Positions 1,928-8,403 of a stretch of DNA of 8,403 nt are shown here, piece by piece (the stretch's first letter is position 1; each line of letters begins with the position of its first letter). Source of the stretch: a virus (Duplodnaviria > Heunggongvirae > Uroviricota > Caudoviricetes); the IMG/VR virus record IMGVR_UViG_2802429224_000013. One strand, written 5' to 3'. Under the pieces are notes generated by a model. It was not told the DNA's origin. It searched no databases and saw nothing but the letters and a program-made list of their open reading frames with translations. Position numbers and translations under genes: made by a program.

Positions 1928-2218
1928 ATGAAAAAGAAAAATTCTGGCTTTACTGCCAGCGGTCTCTCTCGGCCTGAAATCAGACACGGAGATATTTACC
2001 GCGACACCAGACGTGGGGGACGAGTGGTTATTCGTCACGTTACGCCAGGCAATATCACCTACCGCCGTGAGGCTTACGAATATGACTGCGTAATGCCGCG
2101 CCGTCAGTTTGAGCGTGATTTTATTCTGGTTGAAAACAAACAACAGGCAGTGGCAAGACGTGCAGCCACGAATATTAAAAAAATCCGGGCAATGTTGGTT
2201 GCGGGAGGTAAGAAGTGA
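1928..2218 (+). CDS. DUF4222-like small protein (96 aa)
   Basis: Track ORF. AGGAAA lies 8 nt upstream of the start. The pattern GDIYRDTRRGGRVVIRHVTPGNITYRREAYEYDCVMPRRQFERDF resembles DUF4222 proteins common in enterobacterial prophage-like islands. That call is from recall. The stop overlaps the next start (GTGA at 2215-2218). Confidence 0.65.
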   Translation: MKKKNSGFTASGLSRPEIRHGDIYRDTRRGGRVVIRHVTPGNITYRREAYEYDCVMPRRQFERDFILVENKQQAVARRAATNIKKIRAMLVAGGKK

Positions 2219-3627
2219 AAAACGCACCGAATTTAAAATATCAGCCGAAGGATAAATTCACCGAGGTAATCATTTTTGCCGGGACGGACGCTTACTCCCA
2301 TGCTCAACACTGGATTGAAAGCGAAGGACGAAAACACGGCGATAACGTACCACCTGTTTACCTGGGGCCGAAGCAACTGGCAGACCTGGCGAATATCCGC
2401 ATTATTGACGAGAAACGCCGCTTTGCGCGTGTCTATCTCGCGGGGGAGATCGAACCAATCCAGATCAATGCTATCGCTGAAAAACTGGCGCTGGCTGGCG
2501 TACAGGAGGCGAAATTATACAAAGGCATCACCGACCGGGAGCCGGAGAACTGGCGCGATTACCTGCAACGAATCCGCGAACAGCCAGAGCACGAAGAAAT
2601 GCTTACTGACGAGCAATACAGCCAGCGAAAAACCACACTACCAATGAGCATTGGATCGGAAGGATATGATTCACAGCTTAGCTATGTAGTTAAGGGCGTG
2701 ATTCCGGCTAATTCGCTATGTAGCACATACGGTGCGAGCGGTTCTTATAAGTCGTTCCTTGCGTGTTCGTGGGCATGTCATGTTGCTACCGGTATCCCGT
2801 GGGGAGGTCGCAGGGTTGTACATGGTGCGGTTATGTATGTCGTTGGTGAGGGCGGGATCGGTGTTCCTCGTCGTATCAAGGCATGGGAACTGGTGAACAG
2901 TGAGCAGGTGAAAAATCTGTACCTGGTAAATCGTCCAATTTTTCCGGCCGCACCGAGTGATGTTGATGAAATGGTTATTGCTGCCCGACAGGTTGAGCTG
3001 GAAACGGGTAAACCTGTACGCATGATTATTCTGGATACTCTGGCGCGTTGCTTTGGTGGCAGCGATGAAAATGATGCGCGGGATATGGGGGCATTTGTCC
3101 ATGGATGTGACGAACTGAAACGGCGTACAGGCGCTACAGTGCTGGTAATTCACCATTCCGGCAAGGATGAAACAAAGGGTGCGCGCGGTTCCAGTGCGTT
3201 TCGTGCAGCACTGGATGCAGAGTACCGGATACGCCGTGAAGGTGCAGGCAGTGAAGCCCTGGTTATCGCATGTACCAAGATGAAGGATGCGGAGGAACTG
3301 AAAGAAATGGCTTGCGATTTGCGCGAGGTTGAGCTTTTCAAGGATGAAGGCGGGGAGTTAATCACGTCGTTGGTGCTGGAGGATAAACCCCGTCCGCCAG
3401 TTGAACTGGAGCGCATCGAGTACGTTGCTAACAAGACAGAGAATCACGCCGCGCTATGGGGCTGTATCCGTTCACGCACGCAACGCGGAGATAAATGCAC
3501 TATCCCGTTGTTGCGCGATGACATGAAAAAGCTGGGGTATGAGATGAAAAACTTCCGACGCTGGCTGTACAAGCTGGAAGGTGACGGCGTAATCGCTATT
3601 GACGATGATGACGTGCGCCCACTGTAA
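2215..3627 (+). CDS. Replication initiator/helicase-type RecA-fold ATPase (AAA_25/RepA-DnaB-like), 470 aa, with C-terminal winged-helix-like domain
   Basis: This is the longest ORF. It has a GTG start coupled to the upstream stop. The Walker A-like motif is GASGSYKS (nt 2731-2754) and the Walker B-like motif is MIILD (nt 3022-3036). LARCFGGSDENDARDMGAF and VLVIHHSGKD are typical of AAA_25/RepA-type proteins. The basic C-terminal ~70 aa is consistent with a DNA-binding domain. Iterons begin at its stop codon. Confidence 0.88.
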   Translation: MKNAPNLKYQPKDKFTEVIIFAGTDAYSHAQHWIESEGRKHGDNVPPVYLGPKQLADLANIRIIDEKRRFARVYLAGEIEPIQINAIAEKLALAGVQEAKLYKGITDREPENWRDYLQRIREQPEHEEMLTDEQYSQRKTTLPMSIGSEGYDSQLSYVVKGVIPANSLCSTYGASGSYKSFLACSWACHVATGIPWGGRRVVHGAVMYVVGEGGIGVPRRIKAWELVNSEQVKNLYLVNRPIFPAAPSDVDEMVIAARQVELETGKPVRMIILDTLARCFGGSDENDARDMGAFVHGCDELKRRTGATVLVIHHSGKDETKGARGSSAFRAALDAEYRIRREGAGSEALVIACTKMKDAEELKEMACDLREVELFKDEGGELITSLVLEDKPRPPVELERIEYVANKTENHAALWGCIRSRTQRGDKCTIPLLRDDMKKLGYEMKNFRRWLYKLEGDGVIAIDDDDVRPL

Positions 3628-4013
3628 AAAGTGAGGCGTAAAAGTGAGGGGGACAGGGAATATTTAAAAATCACCCCTGTTTCCCTCACTTCTCAACCTG
3701 TATATATACCAAAAAGTGAGGAGTTAATTTTGTACTAAAAAAACAAAGAGTTAAGTGTATTCGCATTTTCTATTTTTGAATATAGGGCAAATAATAAATG
3801 TGAGTAGTAAATGTGAGGAATAGTGAGTAAATAGAATAAATTCTCTGGAAATTACAAACAGGTAAAAAATAAAACAAATAAAGATTTTAACTAAAACTTA
3901 ACTATTTGCCTCATATTTGCGTATATATAGGGGTTTTAAAGTGAATACTTAAAAATACATTTAAAATCATATTGTTATTAACTTCATAAATTCTCACTGT
4001 GTAGCAGGTGAGG
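3626..4013. other. Putative origin of replication: GTGAG(G) iterons flanking an AT-rich core
   Basis: Seen in sequence: AAAAGTGAGG occurs at 3627-3636, 3640-3649 and 3712-3721, with an inverted copy CCTCACTT at 3684-3691. Variants are AAATGTGAGT (3796-3805), AAATGTGAGG (3809-3818), AATAGTGAGT (3819-3828), an inverted CTCAC (3993-3997) and GTGAGG (4008-4013). The clusters flank a very AT-rich stretch (~3829-3992) containing GTATATATA at 3700-3708 and 3921-3929. A 15-bp imperfect inverted repeat spans 3644-3658 and 3675-3689. The origin function is inferred from its position next to the replication gene, as in SaPI/PICI ori. Confidence 0.62.
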
Positions 4014-4835: not shown

Positions 4836-5366
4836 ATGACTAAGCTGACCATTAACAGAAAACCAAAAGGCATTTACGGCACGCCGCAGAAAACGACGCA
4901 GGCGGCGCAAGAGCAGGATAAAACCACGTCGGCGCATAAAGTGATGCCCGGTAACCAGAAAGCGCAGCAGAAGCCCACAGGGGCGACACCGTGGCGGCAT
5001 ATGACCAAACGCCAGCGCAAAAACCGCAGGCGCGTTAACCGCCTCACTGAGTTGTGGCCTGACTTATTCAGCCGGGAAGCACCGAAGCCGCTTAAGGTGG
5101 GGATATTCGACGACCTGATGCAGGATCTCGCCGTCAGGGGGCTGGCATTCGGGCCAGGGGCATTGCGTGCGACGCTGGCATCTTATGCGCAGTGTCCGCG
5201 CTATTACCGCGCCTTAATGGCTGGTGGGGTACGCTACGACCTGAAAGGCCAGCCGTGCGGCGAGGTGACACCACAGGAACAACAGGACGCAGAAACGCGG
5301 CTGGTGGCGCTGAATGAGAAGCGCAAACGTCAGCGCCGGGCAGCAAAGGAGAAAACAGGCGCATGA
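4836..5366 (+). CDS. ProQ/FinO-domain RNA-binding protein (RNA chaperone family)
   Basis: Track ORF 4800..5366. The start is uncertain: GTG 4800, ATG 4824 or ATG 4836, with 4836 having GGGG 6 nt upstream. The N-terminus is basic and Gln-rich. The segment LTELWPDLFS..PKPLKVGIFDDLMQD...GALRATLASYAQCPRYYRALMAGGVRYDLKGQPCGEVT matches the ProQ/FinO domain signature as I remember it. Confidence 0.78.
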   Translation: MTKLTINRKPKGIYGTPQKTTQAAQEQDKTTSAHKVMPGNQKAQQKPTGATPWRHMTKRQRKNRRRVNRLTELWPDLFSREAPKPLKVGIFDDLMQDLAVRGLAFGPGALRATLASYAQCPRYYRALMAGGVRYDLKGQPCGEVTPQEQQDAETRLVALNEKRKRQRRAAKEKTGA

Positions 5367-5650
5367 TTCACGACAGCAAAGCGGAAGCACTGGAAGCGCG
5401 TGGTCTGTACCGGAGAGCGGCGGCGCGGTGGGCTGAGGTCATCATGCTGGCGAATGATGACAAGGCACGGGAACAGGCGGCAAAACGTCGCGCGGAATGT
5501 ATCCGCAAGGCAGCACGCCCACCAGCAAGGCAGGATAATTTCGGAGAGATGCGCGAAACCATCAGCCGGGCACATGCCGGGATGGGATTACATCAGCCCA
5601 ATGGTAAGGCATTCAGGAAATACCCTGGATCGAAAAATTGCAGTCAGTGA
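5363..5650 (+). CDS. PerC-family transcriptional regulator-like protein (95 aa)
   Basis: Track ORF. The ATGA overlap with the upstream stop (5363-5366) indicates coupling. The segment KAEALEARGLYRRAAARWAEV...RRAECIRKA...QPNGKAFR matches the PerC/Pch family motif (A..LE..G.YRRAA.RW) as I remember it. Confidence 0.7.
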   Translation: MIHDSKAEALEARGLYRRAAARWAEVIMLANDDKAREQAAKRRAECIRKAARPPARQDNFGEMRETISRAHAGMGLHQPNGKAFRKYPGSKNCSQ

Positions 5651-5655
5651 CGGAG

Positions 5656-5679
5656 GCCGGGATTTTTCCCGGCTTTTTT
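5656..5679 (+). terminator. Rho-independent terminator ending the first rightward operon
   Basis: Seen in sequence: GCCGGGA (5656-5662), TTTT loop, TCCCGGC (5667-5673), then TTTTTT (5674-5679). It starts 6 nt after the PerC-like stop. Confidence 0.78.
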
Positions 5680-5685
5680 GTGCCA

Positions 5686-5726
5686 GTAAAAAACCCGCAG
5701 CCAGAAGTGTTGCGGGCTTTGTTTTT
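5686..5726. terminator. Second, bidirectional-looking terminator hairpin
   Basis: Seen in sequence: CCCGCA (5694-5699) pairs with TGCGGG (5711-5716), extendable by a G.U and a C-G pair. An A-run precedes it (5686-5693) and CTTTGTTTTT follows (5717-5726). Confidence 0.55.
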
Positions 5727-5786
5727 CAGGTGATTGAAGTCAATGGGAAGAACGCGATCATCATGCGTTATTGTTTCATAAATTGC

Positions 5787-5802
5787 AACGATGTAGATCG
5801 TT
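5787..5802. promoter_or_regulatory. Palindrome AACGAT-gtag-ATCGTT upstream of the second operon (candidate operator/activator site)
   Basis: Seen in sequence: perfect 6-bp inverted arms with a 4-bp spacer, ~50 bp upstream of the ATG at 5852 and between the terminators and the next operon. I could not find a convincing sigma70 -35/-10 pair nearby. A regulatory function is inferred. Confidence 0.3.
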
Positions 5803-5851
5803 ATTTTAGTTTGTGCAATCATAACCATTGTTTTGTTCAGGAGATATGACT

Positions 5852-6025
5852 ATGAGAAAAGCCAGCGTGAAACCCGTTTTACTCGCTCGTGATCAGATTG
5901 AAGCATTACAGCGCATCCAGGACGAGGAACGCCGCAATTCTCCGCTGGGGATTGCTCCGAGCATTCATGAGGTCGCCCGGCGTTTAATGCAGCGGGCGCT
6001 TTATCCCGTAGAACGTCCGGCCTGA
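5852..6025 (+). CDS. Small RHH-like (CopG/Arc/MetJ-type) protein, 57 aa
   Basis: Track ORF 5828..6025, with the start moved to the ATG at 5852 because AGGAG (5839-5843) lies 8 nt upstream. KPVLLARDQIEALQRIQ...SIHEVARRLMQRAL fits a strand-helix-helix pattern. The fold assignment is by eye only. Confidence 0.55.
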   Translation: MRKASVKPVLLARDQIEALQRIQDEERRNSPLGIAPSIHEVARRLMQRALYPVERPA

Positions 6026-6064
6026 TGGTCGTGATTTTTTGGTGAAAAAAGAGAGGTGGTAAAA

Positions 6065-6649
6065 ATGCCAGCAAGCAAAGAAGATTTGCGATTAAAACTG
6101 ATGGAGGTGGTTAACGCTCTGTCAGAGTCGCAGGGCAGCACTCCGCAGGAGATTATCGAAATTCTGAATGCGATCCCCGCACAGGATTTCACAAAAGCGG
6201 ACGAGGATGACGCGAATAAAAACATCGTCGCGTCAGTCGAAGATGAATCCTCACTGGCAGAAGCCCAGGCTAAAGCGGATTCCGCATACAGCAATATGGG
6301 CCGTCGCGCTCCAGCCCCGTTTGCTGGTGAAAAGTCGATGGATTACCGCAAGCGTGCATTAATTGGTGCACAGAAGCTGGCTAAAAAATTCAGTGATGTG
6401 GATATTCGTTCCGTTTCAGATTCTGCAACGCTGGCGGTGCTGGAAGATCAGATTTACCAGGCTGCAAAAGACAGTGTTCAGTGGGCTGTGGAAAATACGC
6501 CGGGCTATTTGCGTAAAACCGTAAGAATGGATGAAGCCGGACGGCGGATTACTGAATATCAGGGGGATCCGAATAACTGGCTTAGTGCTTTCAAAATCCC
6601 TCCCCGTCGCCTGGTTAAAATTAACGTTGCAAGCCTCGCGGGGGCATGA
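6065..6649 (+). CDS. Hypothetical protein (194 aa), acidic N-terminal half
   Basis: Track ORF 6056..6649. The ATG at 6065 is preferred because GAGAGG (6051-6056) lies 8 nt upstream. No family recognised. It is co-oriented with and close to the flanking genes. Confidence 0.72.
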   Translation: MPASKEDLRLKLMEVVNALSESQGSTPQEIIEILNAIPAQDFTKADEDDANKNIVASVEDESSLAEAQAKADSAYSNMGRRAPAPFAGEKSMDYRKRALIGAQKLAKKFSDVDIRSVSDSATLAVLEDQIYQAAKDSVQWAVENTPGYLRKTVRMDEAGRRITEYQGDPNNWLSAFKIPPRRLVKINVASLAGA

Positions 6650-6713
6650 AAAACGTGCTGATTTCAGCCCTGCCGGATTTGGTGGGGCTTATTGCTTATA
6701 ACCGGGGGACATT

Positions 6714-7385
6714 ATGCTTTTAACAGAAATTGAGGCGGCAAAGCAGATTCGGGACGGTCAGCTACCGTCGCCTTATCAGTTTTCCAACATGTGGCTGATT
6801 AACCTGCGTATCACAGGAACCGGAATGGCCTATCGCGCCGAAGAAAAAGAATTTGTCTGGCGTTCACCGCAAACTTATCTCAATCCGCAGTTCCTGGAAC
6901 GTTGCGCCGGAGTACCCGTCATCATCGACCATCCCGAAAGCAAAACCCTTGAAGACGTGGGCGAACGGTCGCGCATTATTGGCACCGTCATGTTGCCGTA
7001 TATTCGCGGTGACGAGGTGTGGGGCGTATGCCGGATTTACGGGCAGGAAATCATCGATTACATCCAGAAAGCCCGGGGGGAGATATCCACCAGCCCGTCG
7101 GTTGTGTTTTGTGGTGCGTCCGGTGGGGCAGAAGTTCCTGATGTAATGGGCGAGGACAATTTTTTTATTGAGGGTACGCCATTTCTTATCGATCACGTTG
7201 CACTCGTACCGTTGGGCGTATGGGATAAGGGCGGGAAACCATCAGGTGTGGAAGTAACAACGCCGACAGAAGAAGAACAGCTCGCCGGAATGGTTCGTGA
7301 AGTTATTGATGCGGCCTGCAAGCCAGCCCTGGAAAAACTGGAAGAAATATCCGGGCGGCTGGCTCAACTGGAAAAAGAAGGGTGA
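6714..7385 (+). CDS. DUF2213-like phage head-assembly (scaffold/protease-like) protein with C-terminal coiled-coil tail, 223 aa
   Basis: Track ORF, with a GGGGG SD before the ATG at 6714. GVPVIIDHPE...IIGTV...GEISTSPSV...FLIDHVALVPLG resembles the DUF2213 pattern (..EHP.., ELS.GY, NHLALV..GRAG) as I remember it. The tail EEEQLAGMVREVIDAACKPALEKLEEISGRLAQLEKEG looks helical or coiled-coil. The family call is uncertain. Confidence 0.7.
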   Translation: MLLTEIEAAKQIRDGQLPSPYQFSNMWLINLRITGTGMAYRAEEKEFVWRSPQTYLNPQFLERCAGVPVIIDHPESKTLEDVGERSRIIGTVMLPYIRGDEVWGVCRIYGQEIIDYIQKARGEISTSPSVVFCGASGGAEVPDVMGEDNFFIEGTPFLIDHVALVPLGVWDKGGKPSGVEVTTPTEEEQLAGMVREVIDAACKPALEKLEEISGRLAQLEKEG

Positions 7386-7391
7386 GTCATA

Positions 7392-7919
7392 ATGCTAATG
7401 AGCAAGGCAGAATATGCCAAACACAAAGGCGTAAGCCGCCAGACAGTTTACGACTGGATCGAGAAAGGCGAAGTGATCATGTCTGGCAAAAAAATTGATG
7501 TGGAGGCGACAGAGCAGCGGAACAGCCCACCGGAACAAGGGAAAGACACCGTTTCTGAAATGTGGCCAGAAAGAACGCTGGAAATGACGTGGGGCGAGTT
7601 CTGGAAAGCAGTTAAGGCCAGAGACGGTAAAGACCCAGCGCCAGTAACTGACGATGATATAGAGCAGCGCGTGCGGAATGCAGCCGAAGAATTAGGCTGG
7701 GAAGTGCAATTTCTTGATGGTGGTGCTATCTGCCTTGAGGATTGCGACGGACAGCATTACTTTGAGCAATACGATTTGCTGGGTAATGCTCGTCTGGCAA
7801 TTCGTATGCTGCGTTGCGAACTCTGCTATGTTGCAGGTGATTATCCCGATGAACTGGAATCATGGAGTGAAGCCGGGCTAAACGCCCTGGCTGAATGGGA
7901 AAAATCAGACCATCAATGA
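7392..7919 (+). CDS. N-terminal HTH DNA-binding protein (MerR/excisionase/Nu1-type HTH), candidate small-terminase-like or Rpp-like packaging factor, 175 aa
   Basis: Track ORF, with an alternative start at ATG 7398. MSKAEYAKHKGVSRQTVYDWIEKGEV matches the HTH_17/Nu1-like helix-turn-helix pattern. The C-terminal ~120 aa is unrecognised. A dense repeat array follows immediately. The packaging role is inferred from context. Confidence 0.7.
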   Translation: MLMSKAEYAKHKGVSRQTVYDWIEKGEVIMSGKKIDVEATEQRNSPPEQGKDTVSEMWPERTLEMTWGEFWKAVKARDGKDPAPVTDDDIEQRVRNAAEELGWEVQFLDGGAICLEDCDGQHYFEQYDLLGNARLAIRMLRCELCYVAGDYPDELESWSEAGLNALAEWEKSDHQ

Positions 7920-7925
7920 CATCAA

Positions 7926-8219
7926 AAAGTGTCAAGTTGAGCAGCTTGCCAGGTTGACACTTTGCACTCTGAACGCGAAAAAGTGTCAACCTCGCTGTAA
8001 ACCCCGCCGTTACTGGCTTTGCGCCAGATTTACCACGTCAAAAAGCCGAAAAAAATCGCGAAAAGTGTCAAGTTGCCATGCTTAGAAATGCTAAGGTTTG
8101 ATAAGGTTTGATAAGGTTTTTCGCGAAAAAGTGTCAAGTGTGTCAACCTGCGATGTTAAGATTTGTTAAGGTCTCAAGCCGGAAAGTGTCAACCAGCCCC
8201 TAAGATTTCCTAAGGTGTA
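7926..8219. repeat. Composite array of two interleaved short motifs: AAAGTGTCAA boxes and 10-bp phased TAAG(G/A)T units
   Basis: Seen in sequence: AAAGTGTCAA occurs at 7926-7935, 7980-7989, 8062-8071, 8128-8137 and 8183-8192. There is an inverted copy TTGACACTTT at 7954-7963 and a partial GTGTCAA at 8140-8146. The tandem 10-bp units are CTAAGGTTTG/ATAAGGTTTG/ATAAGGTTTT (8091-8120), GTTAAGATTT/GTTAAGGTCT (8155-8174) and CTAAGATTTC/CTAAGGTGTA (8200-8219). A palindrome CTTAG-aaatg-CTAAG lies at 8081-8095. Confidence 0.85.
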
Positions 8220-8223
8220 AATC

Positions 8224-8403
8224 ATGACCATCACCGAAGCCGATTTGCTGGAGATGATCCGCAGCATTGCCGGAATCAAACAACCTGCAAGCAAAATTAA
8301 CAGGTGTTCAGCGCCTGTTTCCGTTGTGCTGCAACAGGAACGCCACCAGCATGATGATGTGAGGCCGTATCAGTGGCGGAAACCGGATAGGCCACGACGG
8401 TGA
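8224..8403 (+). CDS. Small hypothetical protein (59 aa) with basic C-terminal tail
   Basis: Hand-translated and absent from the supplied track: MTITEADLLEMIRSIAGIKQPASKINRCSAPVSVVLQQERHQHDDVRPYQWRKPDRPRR. AAGGTG (8212-8217) lies 6 nt before the ATG, and the TGA falls at the window end. The SD is formed by the last TAAGGT repeat unit. Confidence 0.5.
   Translation: MTITEADLLEMIRSIAGIKQPASKINRCSAPVSVVLQQERHQHDDVRPYQWRKPDRPRR

Follow-up and report, generated by a model that had tools for sequence, protein, structure and literature searches.

A phage-inducible chromosomal island late operon with a split head gene of helper type and an Rpp-like protein: a putative capsid and packaging interference module

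The right-hand part of an 8,403-nucleotide stretch of DNA from the Caudoviricetes record IMGVR_UViG_2802429224_000013 (the window, by which we mean the whole stretch that was analysed) carries four genes, g1 to g4, which a preliminary description had taken for a helper-hijacking module, acting on capsid and packaging and made of unassigned proteins. What is this group of genes, and what could it do to a helper phage? The gene organisation of the window and the parallels between its layout and the late zone of the island EcCICFT073 identify the four genes as the late-zone operon of a Gram-negative satellite of the phage-inducible chromosomal island (PICI) type, as had been supposed, and the content of the module points to capsid assembly and packaging. 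On the other hand, g2 and g3 can no longer be called unassigned, as both are clear homologues of a head maturation protease/scaffold gene of helper type. We consider it about evenly balanced whether this late operon combines a helper-derived short scaffold and protease, for capsid redirection or interference, with an Rpp-like packaging factor. No description of such a module was found in the literature searched.

The evidence for g2 and g3 comes from the phages. When g3 and g2 were each compared by tblastn with 50,697 phage records, both recovered the same 14 phages, and in each of these phages the two matches lay within one gene. In Escherichia phage Rac-SA53 this gene, rac43, encodes a protein of 430 aa; residues 3-221 of g3 align with its residues 3-226 at 53.5% identity and residues 60-187 of g2 with its residues 295-422 at 64.8% identity, the Glu/Ala/Lys-rich repeats at 227-294 being missing from the satellite. 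The satellite version consists of two genes in swapped order, the scaffold-like part first and the protease second, without the charged linker of ~70 residues. PHROG 6216 spans g2 and g3 likewise, g2 matching positions 405-544 of phrog_6216 with E = 8e-47, and rac43, which is located between portal/head-morphogenesis genes on one side and the genes for a 205-aa protein and the major head protein on the other, additionally matches PHROGs 2229 and 12864. Judged by these alignments, the g2-g3 cassette goes back to a single head gene of a helper phage, of the DUF2213/Pa193_gp24 protease/putative scaffold type.

That g3 is DUF2213-like, as the preliminary description held, was borne out by Pfam PF09979 (28.7 bits against a curated cut-off of 22). 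All 18 aligned g3 relatives match PF09979, and 12 of the 18 family members match phrog_530, 'head maturation protease', with a best E of 2.5e-13. No satellite or phage member of the g3 family departs from His73, Ser127 (in an STSP motif) or His161 (in a DH motif), and these residues are candidates for the catalytic set of a putative protease. The satellite gene comprises the DUF2213 domain and a C-terminal tail of ~40 aa, after which it ends without the capsid-side C-terminal domain; the extension is encoded apart, by g2. The tail, which had been read as a helical feature of scaffold type, is homologous to the helix after the protease domain in the phage protein (z = 6.1), and the scaffold-like component would be g2 instead. 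The latter had been listed as an acidic unknown, which holds for the whole protein (isoelectric point, pI, 5.2) and for its N-terminus (pI 4.05) but not for its C-terminal domain, which is basic (pI 9.7) and homologous to the phage DUF2213 protein. Its layout of acidic N-terminal helices, disordered acidic linker and basic C-terminal domain is reflected in the AlphaFold2 model (predicted local distance difference test, pLDDT, 75), in which N-terminal helices are followed by a disordered acidic segment at 40-56, long helices, a beta-hairpin and a conserved flexible C-terminus, and we regard g2 as a putative scaffold-like protein. A Foldseek search of BFVD with this model returned a UCP029215 phage protein alone (E = 0.04), which we take to belong to the same DUF2213 family. 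The N-terminus of g2 showed a weak similarity to the same post-protease helix of the phage protein (shuffle p = 0.008), and its homology to the g3 tail itself was not significant (p = 0.11). The pattern in g2 and g3 would fit two copies of the phage gene with complementary losses.

Public records call g2 'NUDIX hydrolase' and g3 'TolA' or 'cell envelope biogenesis protein TolA', and in Pfam searches neither of the two has a NUDIX or a TolA domain. These names are misannotations spread from multi-domain phage relatives in which NUDIX, DUF2213 and a charged linker occur together, and the assignment made here corrects a widespread error.

Protease and scaffold share one reading frame in lambda (gpC/Nu3), Mu (gpI/gpZ) and P2 (gpO). 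The phage parent of g2 and g3 is like these systems in having a protease domain followed by a scaffold-like part, so that g2 would correspond to the nested scaffold and g3 to the protease; unlike them, it shows no sequence homology to any of these proteins, and in the satellite the two products come from distinct genes. An internal Met preceded by a Shine-Dalgarno-like sequence at the domain junction of the Rac-SA53 and the Chronis protein is only suggestive of nested translation, lambda C/Nu3-like, in the Rac-SA53 family. Phages with the parts as separate, adjacent genes also occur, namely two metagenomic phages (L014 and L015 among the loci compared), in the order protease, C-domain protein, rac44-like protein and capsid. 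A further point of reference is gp24 of phage Pa193, a 478-aa protein with a DUF2213 match of E = 2.4e-33, named head maturation protease in RefSeq, whose gene immediately precedes those for the cement and major capsid proteins. It belongs with g3 and rac43 to PF09979, which carries the label 'Pa193_gp24' in precomputed Pfam labels, and it is like rac43 in its N-terminal DUF2213 domain, charged region, C-terminal capsid-side region and location upstream of the capsid gene. Pa193 gp24 is a putative scaffold that was seen bound inside the capsid vertices (PMC11456595). Unlike the satellite pair it is a single protein, and identity in the DUF2213 domain is only ~22%.

The genome around the module is that of an island and not of a complete phage. 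All of g1 to g4 are annotated coding sequences in near-identical RefSeq E. coli islands (96.5% nucleotide identity), and in E. coli ETEC1748 the same DNA makes up the right-hand portion of an island that is inserted in yifB/comM and measures ~11.6 kb, with the order integrase, small helix-turn-helix (HTH) regulator, AntA/B, Icd-like protein, DUF4222, RepA helicase, 260-aa protein, ProQ/FinO, PerC, g1-g4 and a 59-aa open reading frame (ORF). As the left end of the island lies beyond the window, its integrase end was judged from two relatives: in L001, ~11.6 kb in yifB, the integrase gene is followed by that of a 62-aa HTH regulator, and in the Enterobacter mori island (L004) an HTH_17 gene comes after int. 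The window itself encodes a replication function, a RepA/AAA_25 helicase at 2215-3627 followed by a region of 30% GC with AAAAGTGAGG iterons. Of virion genes, a head-gene origin was found for g2 and g3 only; neither the window nor L001 contains capsid, portal, terminase, tail or lysis genes by ORF, Pfam, PHROG or annotation. This organisation (integrase end, regulator, replication, late zone) is that of Gram-negative PICIs (PMC6092414), the term late zone being that of PMC10111431. As defined by Fillol-Salom et al. 2018, such islands measure 10-20 kb, and next to the integrase at one end they encode a co-oriented AlpA-type regulator. The ORFs, their ribosome-binding sites and the hairpins with U-runs on the far side of perC (5363-5650) together confirm the gene calls and the tandem terminators of the preliminary description, in which four co-oriented genes follow the terminators.

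Our reference for Gram-negative PICIs and their Rpp proteins was Fillol-Salom et al. 2018 and 2019. The right end of EcCICFT073 reads PerC, 68-aa ORF, major capsid homologue, decoration homologue, 137-aa ORF, RppA (144 aa; PMC6739421), 93-aa ORF and phoQ. The window follows it in having PerC, terminators, an upstream motif, a small ORF, captured head genes and a winged helix-turn-helix (wHTH) protein in that order, and then a repeat-bearing intergenic region after the wHTH gene and a homologous small terminal ORF. The two differ in what was captured, a protease/scaffold gene in two pieces in the window and capsid and decoration genes in EcCICFT073. They also differ in the flanking repeats, since lambda-type cosN copies flank rppA in EcCICFT073, along with three ACCGGACAT repeats, while the window has six AAGTGTCAA boxes after g4 and no lambda-type cosN, and in the likely helper, which for the window is a Rac-SA53-type phage with a TerS of the Terminase_2 family.

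The split architecture is kept in E. coli, Citrobacter, Enterobacter, Pantoea and Klebsiella at 55-75% identity, and the late genes are under purifying selection, with ratios of nonsynonymous to synonymous substitution (dN/dS, Nei-Gojobori) of 0.08-0.23 overall. Against the E. coli and E. mori orthologues the ratio was 0.16-0.20 for g2 and 0.08-0.17 for g3; for g4 the one usable value was 0.23, against E. coli, synonymous sites being saturated in the E. mori comparison. The values for g2-g4 resemble those for perC, proQ and repA of the same island. A g4-type gene was found in ~166 E. coli genomes as against 34 with g2-g3. As g4 is far commoner than g2-g3, and as g1 and g4 are kept where g2-g3 are lacking, g1 and g4 are the conserved core of the operon and g2 and g3 are accessory, a cassette which the island lineage does not require. 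These figures bear on the most serious rival explanation, according to which g2 and g3 are passively captured helper late genes, back-up or redundant, with no role in size or interference, and what matters is g4, alone or together with g1. Helper late genes are often found in Gram-negative PICIs, and EcCICFT073 can be transferred without its captured capsid gene and uses full-size capsids (PMC6092414; PMC10111431), so that captured head genes need not redirect size; most g4-bearing islands lack g2 and g3, and another variant took up an unrelated tail-region gene at 80% identity. On the other hand, the copies in question have diverged over a long time (53-65% identity to the phage gene) and are still under purifying selection, and their non-phage architecture, split, reversed, with the linker lost and a new acidic N-terminus, has been kept across several genera, where a simple back-up copy would be expected to retain the phage arrangement. 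We therefore think passive capture somewhat unlikely, though it has to be taken seriously, and we continue with the reading of the operon as a helper-derived scaffold and protease joined to a packaging factor.

For the packaging side of this reading the protein of interest is g4. The preliminary description had called it an HTH protein with an unrecognised C-terminal domain, and so it proved: the N-terminal HTH was confirmed and the C-terminus matches no family. Its AlphaFold2 model is confident (pLDDT 89) and comprises a winged HTH (1-43), a disordered linker (46-56) and an alpha/beta domain (60-170). The g4 family counts ~100 clusters, all from Enterobacterales, with a nearly invariant N-terminus, MLMSKAEYAKHRGVSRQTVYDWIAKGEVVMSGxKIDVEATE, and a variable remainder. 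An exhaustive HMMER search with the C-terminal domain gave 19 cluster representatives, all of the same family save one repetitive and uninformative 837-aa protein, and Foldseek of the g4 model against the PDB returned nothing at E <= 0.001 and high probability for small wHTH proteins only. In structure comparison of the model the winged helix falls into the lambda-TerS/RppC/Xis fold class, with values of 7.0 for Pukovnik Xis, 6.4 for TerS (7lxs), 6.4 for lambda TerS (6hn7_B), 6.1 for BldC, 5.8 for RppC (6hn7_A) and 5.8 for P2 Cox. Like Rpp, g4 has an N-terminal MerR-like winged HTH resembling the DNA-binding domain of lambda TerS; unlike Rpp, it lacks the C-terminal three-helix dimerisation region with a long coiled-coil helix, its C-terminal domain being an orphan alpha/beta fold without homology past the HTH. 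The best PHROG match is common to g4 and RppA, and g4 sits at the genomic position which RppA holds in EcCICFT073, with a homologous small ORF after it. By blastp, g4 and RppA align over only 25 residues of the HTH (36% identity, E = 1e-3), and neither phmmer with the single g4 sequence nor the g4 family profile matched the RppC chains in the PDB, which rules out g4 as a close Rpp homologue. Thus the statement that no product of this operon matches a known effector needs revision for g4, which has the DNA-binding fold class, best PHROG and position of Rpp, and stands in so far as there is no sequence homology beyond the HTH. A complete TerS was ruled out as well: TerS profiles cover residues 1-42 only, there is no similarity to the TerS of Rac-SA53, no TerS oligomerisation/TerL-binding region was found, and the fold of the C-terminal domain is unlike that of TerS chains in the PDB. 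By analogy, g4 may be regarded as a positional and DNA-binding-domain counterpart of Rpp.

The module extends beyond g4 into a repeat array and a small terminal ORF, orf59. In the window AAGTGTCAA occurs seven times against 0.10 expected, six of the matches lying in the array, and none of 200 shuffles reached the observed count; the sole box outside the array (420-428), inside a 50-aa ORF, is probably due to chance. The array stands directly after g4 in every E. coli and E. mori variant examined, with or without g2-g3, and it does so whether the replication gene is RepA or DUF927; related boxes, GTGTAAA/GTGTCAA, occur in islands from Klebsiella. Together, the invariance of the HTH and the conservation of the array alongside it suggest that g4 may bind the AAGTGTCAA boxes, and position together with the analogy to Rpp suggests that the array could be a packaging-recognition site. 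A role as origin iterons was ruled out, because the array follows g4 whatever the replicon and because AAAAGTGAGG iterons are found in this window alone among the loci examined. One repeat within the array, TGATAAGGTTTGATAAGGTTTTTCG (8099-8124), agrees with the terS gene of Rac-SA53 (L002 2801-2826) at 22 of 26 positions, 15 of them in a row; this could be mimicry of a pac site or chance, and it is only a lead because the repeat varies among island variants. As to orf59, it is homologous at both termini to the 93-aa ORF after rppA in EcCICFT073 (blastp E = 1.6e-6), it matches phrog_1561 and phrog_7271, and its C-terminus, ...W(K/R)KPxxRR, is found likewise in the Klebsiella and E. mori islands. 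A second rival explanation concerns g4 and the array only. It holds that g4 is a transcriptional regulator or a recombination directionality factor (excisionase) and the AAGTGTCAA array an operator or architectural site; the fold class named above includes Xis, and the position of g4, its best PHROG match and the homologous ORF after it are those of RppA. On balance we judge this explanation distinctly unlikely and retain g4 as a candidate packaging factor.

Which phage could be the helper? Among 5426 complete E. coli genomes, 34 carry g2-g3 and 88 carry rac43-45 of the Rac-SA53 type. Module and Rac-SA53-type head genes occur together in at least 12 genomes against 0.55 expected (hypergeometric p <= 6e-14), a lower bound, since the count covers only the 60 listed phage-positive records. 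The island of STEC719 (L013 40589-43310) has two extra genes between g3 and g4, one for a 205-aa protein 80% identical to Rac-SA53 rac52 and one for a 679-aa protein with a lytic transglycosylase domain, an insertion that indicates a recent further capture of helper genes. This island is not embedded in its helper, as the prophage lies a few host genes away. In Klebsiella a relative of the island lies beside a prophage that has E217-type tail genes, and the prophage gene which it adjoins is a truncated PF09950 capsid gene. The co-occurrence, the rac52-like gene and the Klebsiella neighbour therefore make Rac-SA53-like phages the most likely helpers.

Sister islands carry g1, a 90-aa ORF and g4, followed by defence-like cargo. 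Directly after the g4 array, E. coli O104:H4 (L011 10154-12110) has an AAA ATPase and a DUF4435 protein (a PARIS-like pair) and E. coli AH01 (L012 8605-11323) a SIR2-family protein and a hypothetical protein; in these PICIs the right end seems to be a hotspot for cargo. A Klebsiella island with a g4 homologue and without g2/g3 (L007 8832-9500) encodes a 222-aa HEAGH zinc-metalloprotease-like protein and a 185-aa protein before g4, and this pair is a different accessory cassette at the same position. The remaining rival, that the module is a host-benefiting anti-phage device in which dominant-negative scaffold and protease fragments abort helper heads without satellite-sized capsids, draws on this defence cargo beside g4 and on the shapes of the two proteins (g3 with the shared helix and without the capsid-side domain, g2 with that domain and without the spacer, as is typical of dominant-negative fragments), but it is the least probable of the three and in our opinion quite improbable, given that no PADLOC defence model matches the module and that g3 retains every one of its candidate catalytic residues, for which a pure poison would have no use, although interference and redirection are not mutually exclusive.

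We return to the operon as a capsid and packaging module. Since g2 and g3 are a copy of a helper protease/scaffold gene and g4 stands at the position of Rpp, the module probably interferes with the assembly of the helper capsid and with DNA packaging in a manner not yet described, and redirection of capsid size or of packaging may be the outcome. Through its conserved C-terminal domain, which by analogy within its family would contact the capsid interior, g2 could enter helper procapsids and compete there with the long scaffold of the helper, and as g2 is far shorter than that scaffold, shell assembly might be changed or poisoned, for example towards small capsids. The matching protease would be g3 with its intact His/Ser/His set, possibly held below g2 in amount by a hairpin between the two genes. 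The winged helix of g4, of lambda-TerS/RppC class, would sit on the downstream AAGTGTCAA array, and its orphan C-terminal domain would engage the helper terminase and steer packaging to satellite DNA, as Rpp does in EcCICFT073. Rpp proteins bind the TerS of the helper and block packaging of the phage, and the island needs them for its own packaging.

Redirection of capsid size is known from P4 (Sid), from the Staphylococcus aureus pathogenicity islands, SaPIs (CpmAB, Ccm, Rcm), and from PLE (TcaP). In SaPIs, CpmB together with CpmA is the determinant of capsid size, and Dearborn and co-workers are said to have described CpmB in 2017 as a small scaffold inside the capsid which is akin to the C-terminal, capsid-binding end of the helper scaffolding protein and competes with that protein. 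The scheme proposed here would share the logic of a satellite scaffold that mimics that of the helper; there is no sequence relationship, the donor is a DUF2213 protease-scaffold fusion, and the protease half is kept as a separate gene. Thus the architecture and logic of Gram-negative PICIs and scaffold mimicry of the CpmB type are already known, and what is new are the split protease/scaffold cassette, the orphan C-terminal domain of g4 and the AAGTGTCAA array.

Several observations weigh against this scheme. Besides the dispensable capsid gene and full-size capsids of EcCICFT073 and the small share of g4-bearing E. coli genomes that carry the cassette, both given above, neither a trimmed DUF2213 profile nor the g2 profile matched any PDB sequence (the trimmed profile was used since, with the full alignment of g3, the NUDIX domain present in phage homologues dominated the search). 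No detectable similarity links the C-terminal domain of g2 to the C-terminal part of Pa193 gp24, so that the capsid-binding helix-turn-helix of the latter could not be mapped onto it, and the TerS of Rac-SA53 belongs to the Terminase_2 family and is not of Nu1 type. With these points in mind we offer a more specific version as a possibility that is open to considerable doubt: un-nesting and shortening of the helper gene may have produced a two-gene kit, the spacer-less scaffold g2 and the protease g3, that re-sizes or sabotages heads of the Rac-SA53 type, with g4 as a new class of packaging-redirector whose Rpp/TerS-like winged helix would sit on the AAGTGTCAA array and whose orphan domain would capture a non-lambda (Terminase_2/Terminase_6N) terminase. 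If true, this would be the first internal-scaffold system of size determination in enterobacterial PICIs and a second, structurally distinct mechanism of Rpp type.

The model enterobacterial PICI, EcCICFT073, is without size redirection, a gap which this module may address, and a diverged, split and shortened helper protease/scaffold under purifying selection offers a testable case for size control by scaffold length, or for assembly poisoning, in Enterobacteriaceae. The family of g4 suggests that packaging redirection could be modular, a conserved TerS-like DNA-binding head being combined with varied helper-binding tails, which would extend the Rpp paradigm past lambda-type cos phages. Toxin genes are known from the proposed helper family (those for LT-IIa in Rac-SA53 and for subtilase-family AB5 toxins in the STEC719 prophage), and interference with the helper would therefore affect the spread of toxin phages.

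Table 1. Features of the late zone, with positions in the window
Feature	Position	Strand	Product	Remarks
Intrinsic terminator 1, after perC	~5652-5683	+		GGAGGCCGGGA/UCCCGGCUUUU hairpin and U-run, read from the sequence
Intrinsic terminator 2	~5694-5727	+		CCCGCAGC...GUUGCGGG and CUUUGUUUUU; terminator scan: 8 pairs, 6 GC
Conserved upstream motif	5774-5823	+		TTTCATAAATTGCAAC ... TGTGCAATCATA; from alignment ahead of the first late-zone ORF
g1	5852-6025	+	57 aa	plausible ribosome-binding site
g2	6065-6649	+	194 aa	plausible ribosome-binding site
GC-rich hairpin and U-rich tract between g2 and g3	6666-6699	+		terminator scan: 10 pairs
g3	6714-7385	+	223 aa	plausible ribosome-binding site
g4	7392-7919	+	175 aa	plausible ribosome-binding site
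Repeat array	7920-8223			six AAGTGTCAA boxes and five TAAGRTTTNNTAAGG-type repeats
AAGTGTCAA boxes in the array	7927, 7954 (minus strand), 7981, 8063, 8129, 8184			
orf59	8224-8403	+	59 aa	small terminal ORF

The transcription signals of the operon are listed in Table 1. An 88-nt fold spanning both terminator hairpins has a free energy of -34.2 kcal/mol (z = -3.07), the position of the second hairpin is kept in ETEC1748 and EcCICFT073, and 5751-5769 holds a third hairpin, which is weak. Three different PICIs, namely the window, the E. mori island (L004 ~9040-9100) and EcCICFT073 (L010 ~330-400), share a motif TTTCATAAATTGCAAC ... TGTGCAATCAT ahead of the first late ORF. This motif may serve the operon as late promoter or activator site, for which PerC, a helper factor or AlpA are candidate regulators; no strong sigma-70 promoter was found at this motif. 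At the spot equivalent to the hairpin between g2 and g3, the E. mori island (L004 9939-10000) has a hairpin of other sequence with a U-run, and the shuffle z-scores of the two are weak (-0.2 and -1.9). Phages reach a ratio of scaffold above protease by nested translation. Tentatively, the g2-g3 hairpin may act as a partial terminator and so hold the amount of protease below that of the scaffold-like protein.

The first gene of the operon, g1, encodes a basic protein of 6.6 kDa (pI 10.7) which is kept at 65-98% identity in the E. coli and E. mori islands, including those without g2 and g3. It had been described as ribbon-helix-helix (RHH)-like, an assignment for which there was no support: six orthologues gave no Pfam match up to E = 10, and there was no PHROG, NCBIfam or PDB-profile match, all of these being sequence-profile searches. 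A role of g1 in regulating the operon would be a guess.

Outside the late zone, three further features of the window were noted. The AT-rich stretch after repA (30% GC; 3626-3727, up to ~4019) contains, along with the AAAAGTGAGG iterons, other direct repeats and is probably the replication origin of the island; the exact AAAAGTGAGG iteron is absent even from the 96%-identical ETEC1748 island. Two copies of TGGTAATTACC, with the palindromic core GGTAATTACC, lie at 660-705 between a minus-strand gene for a 57-aa RHH-like protein (489-662) and the plus-strand early genes, and look like the operator of the island repressor at a divergent promoter. Downstream of this RHH-like gene, also on the minus strand, is the hydrophobic 50-aa ORF (315-467) that holds the stray AAGTGTCAA box, and the two may form a small toxin/antitoxin-like or membrane-peptide pair.

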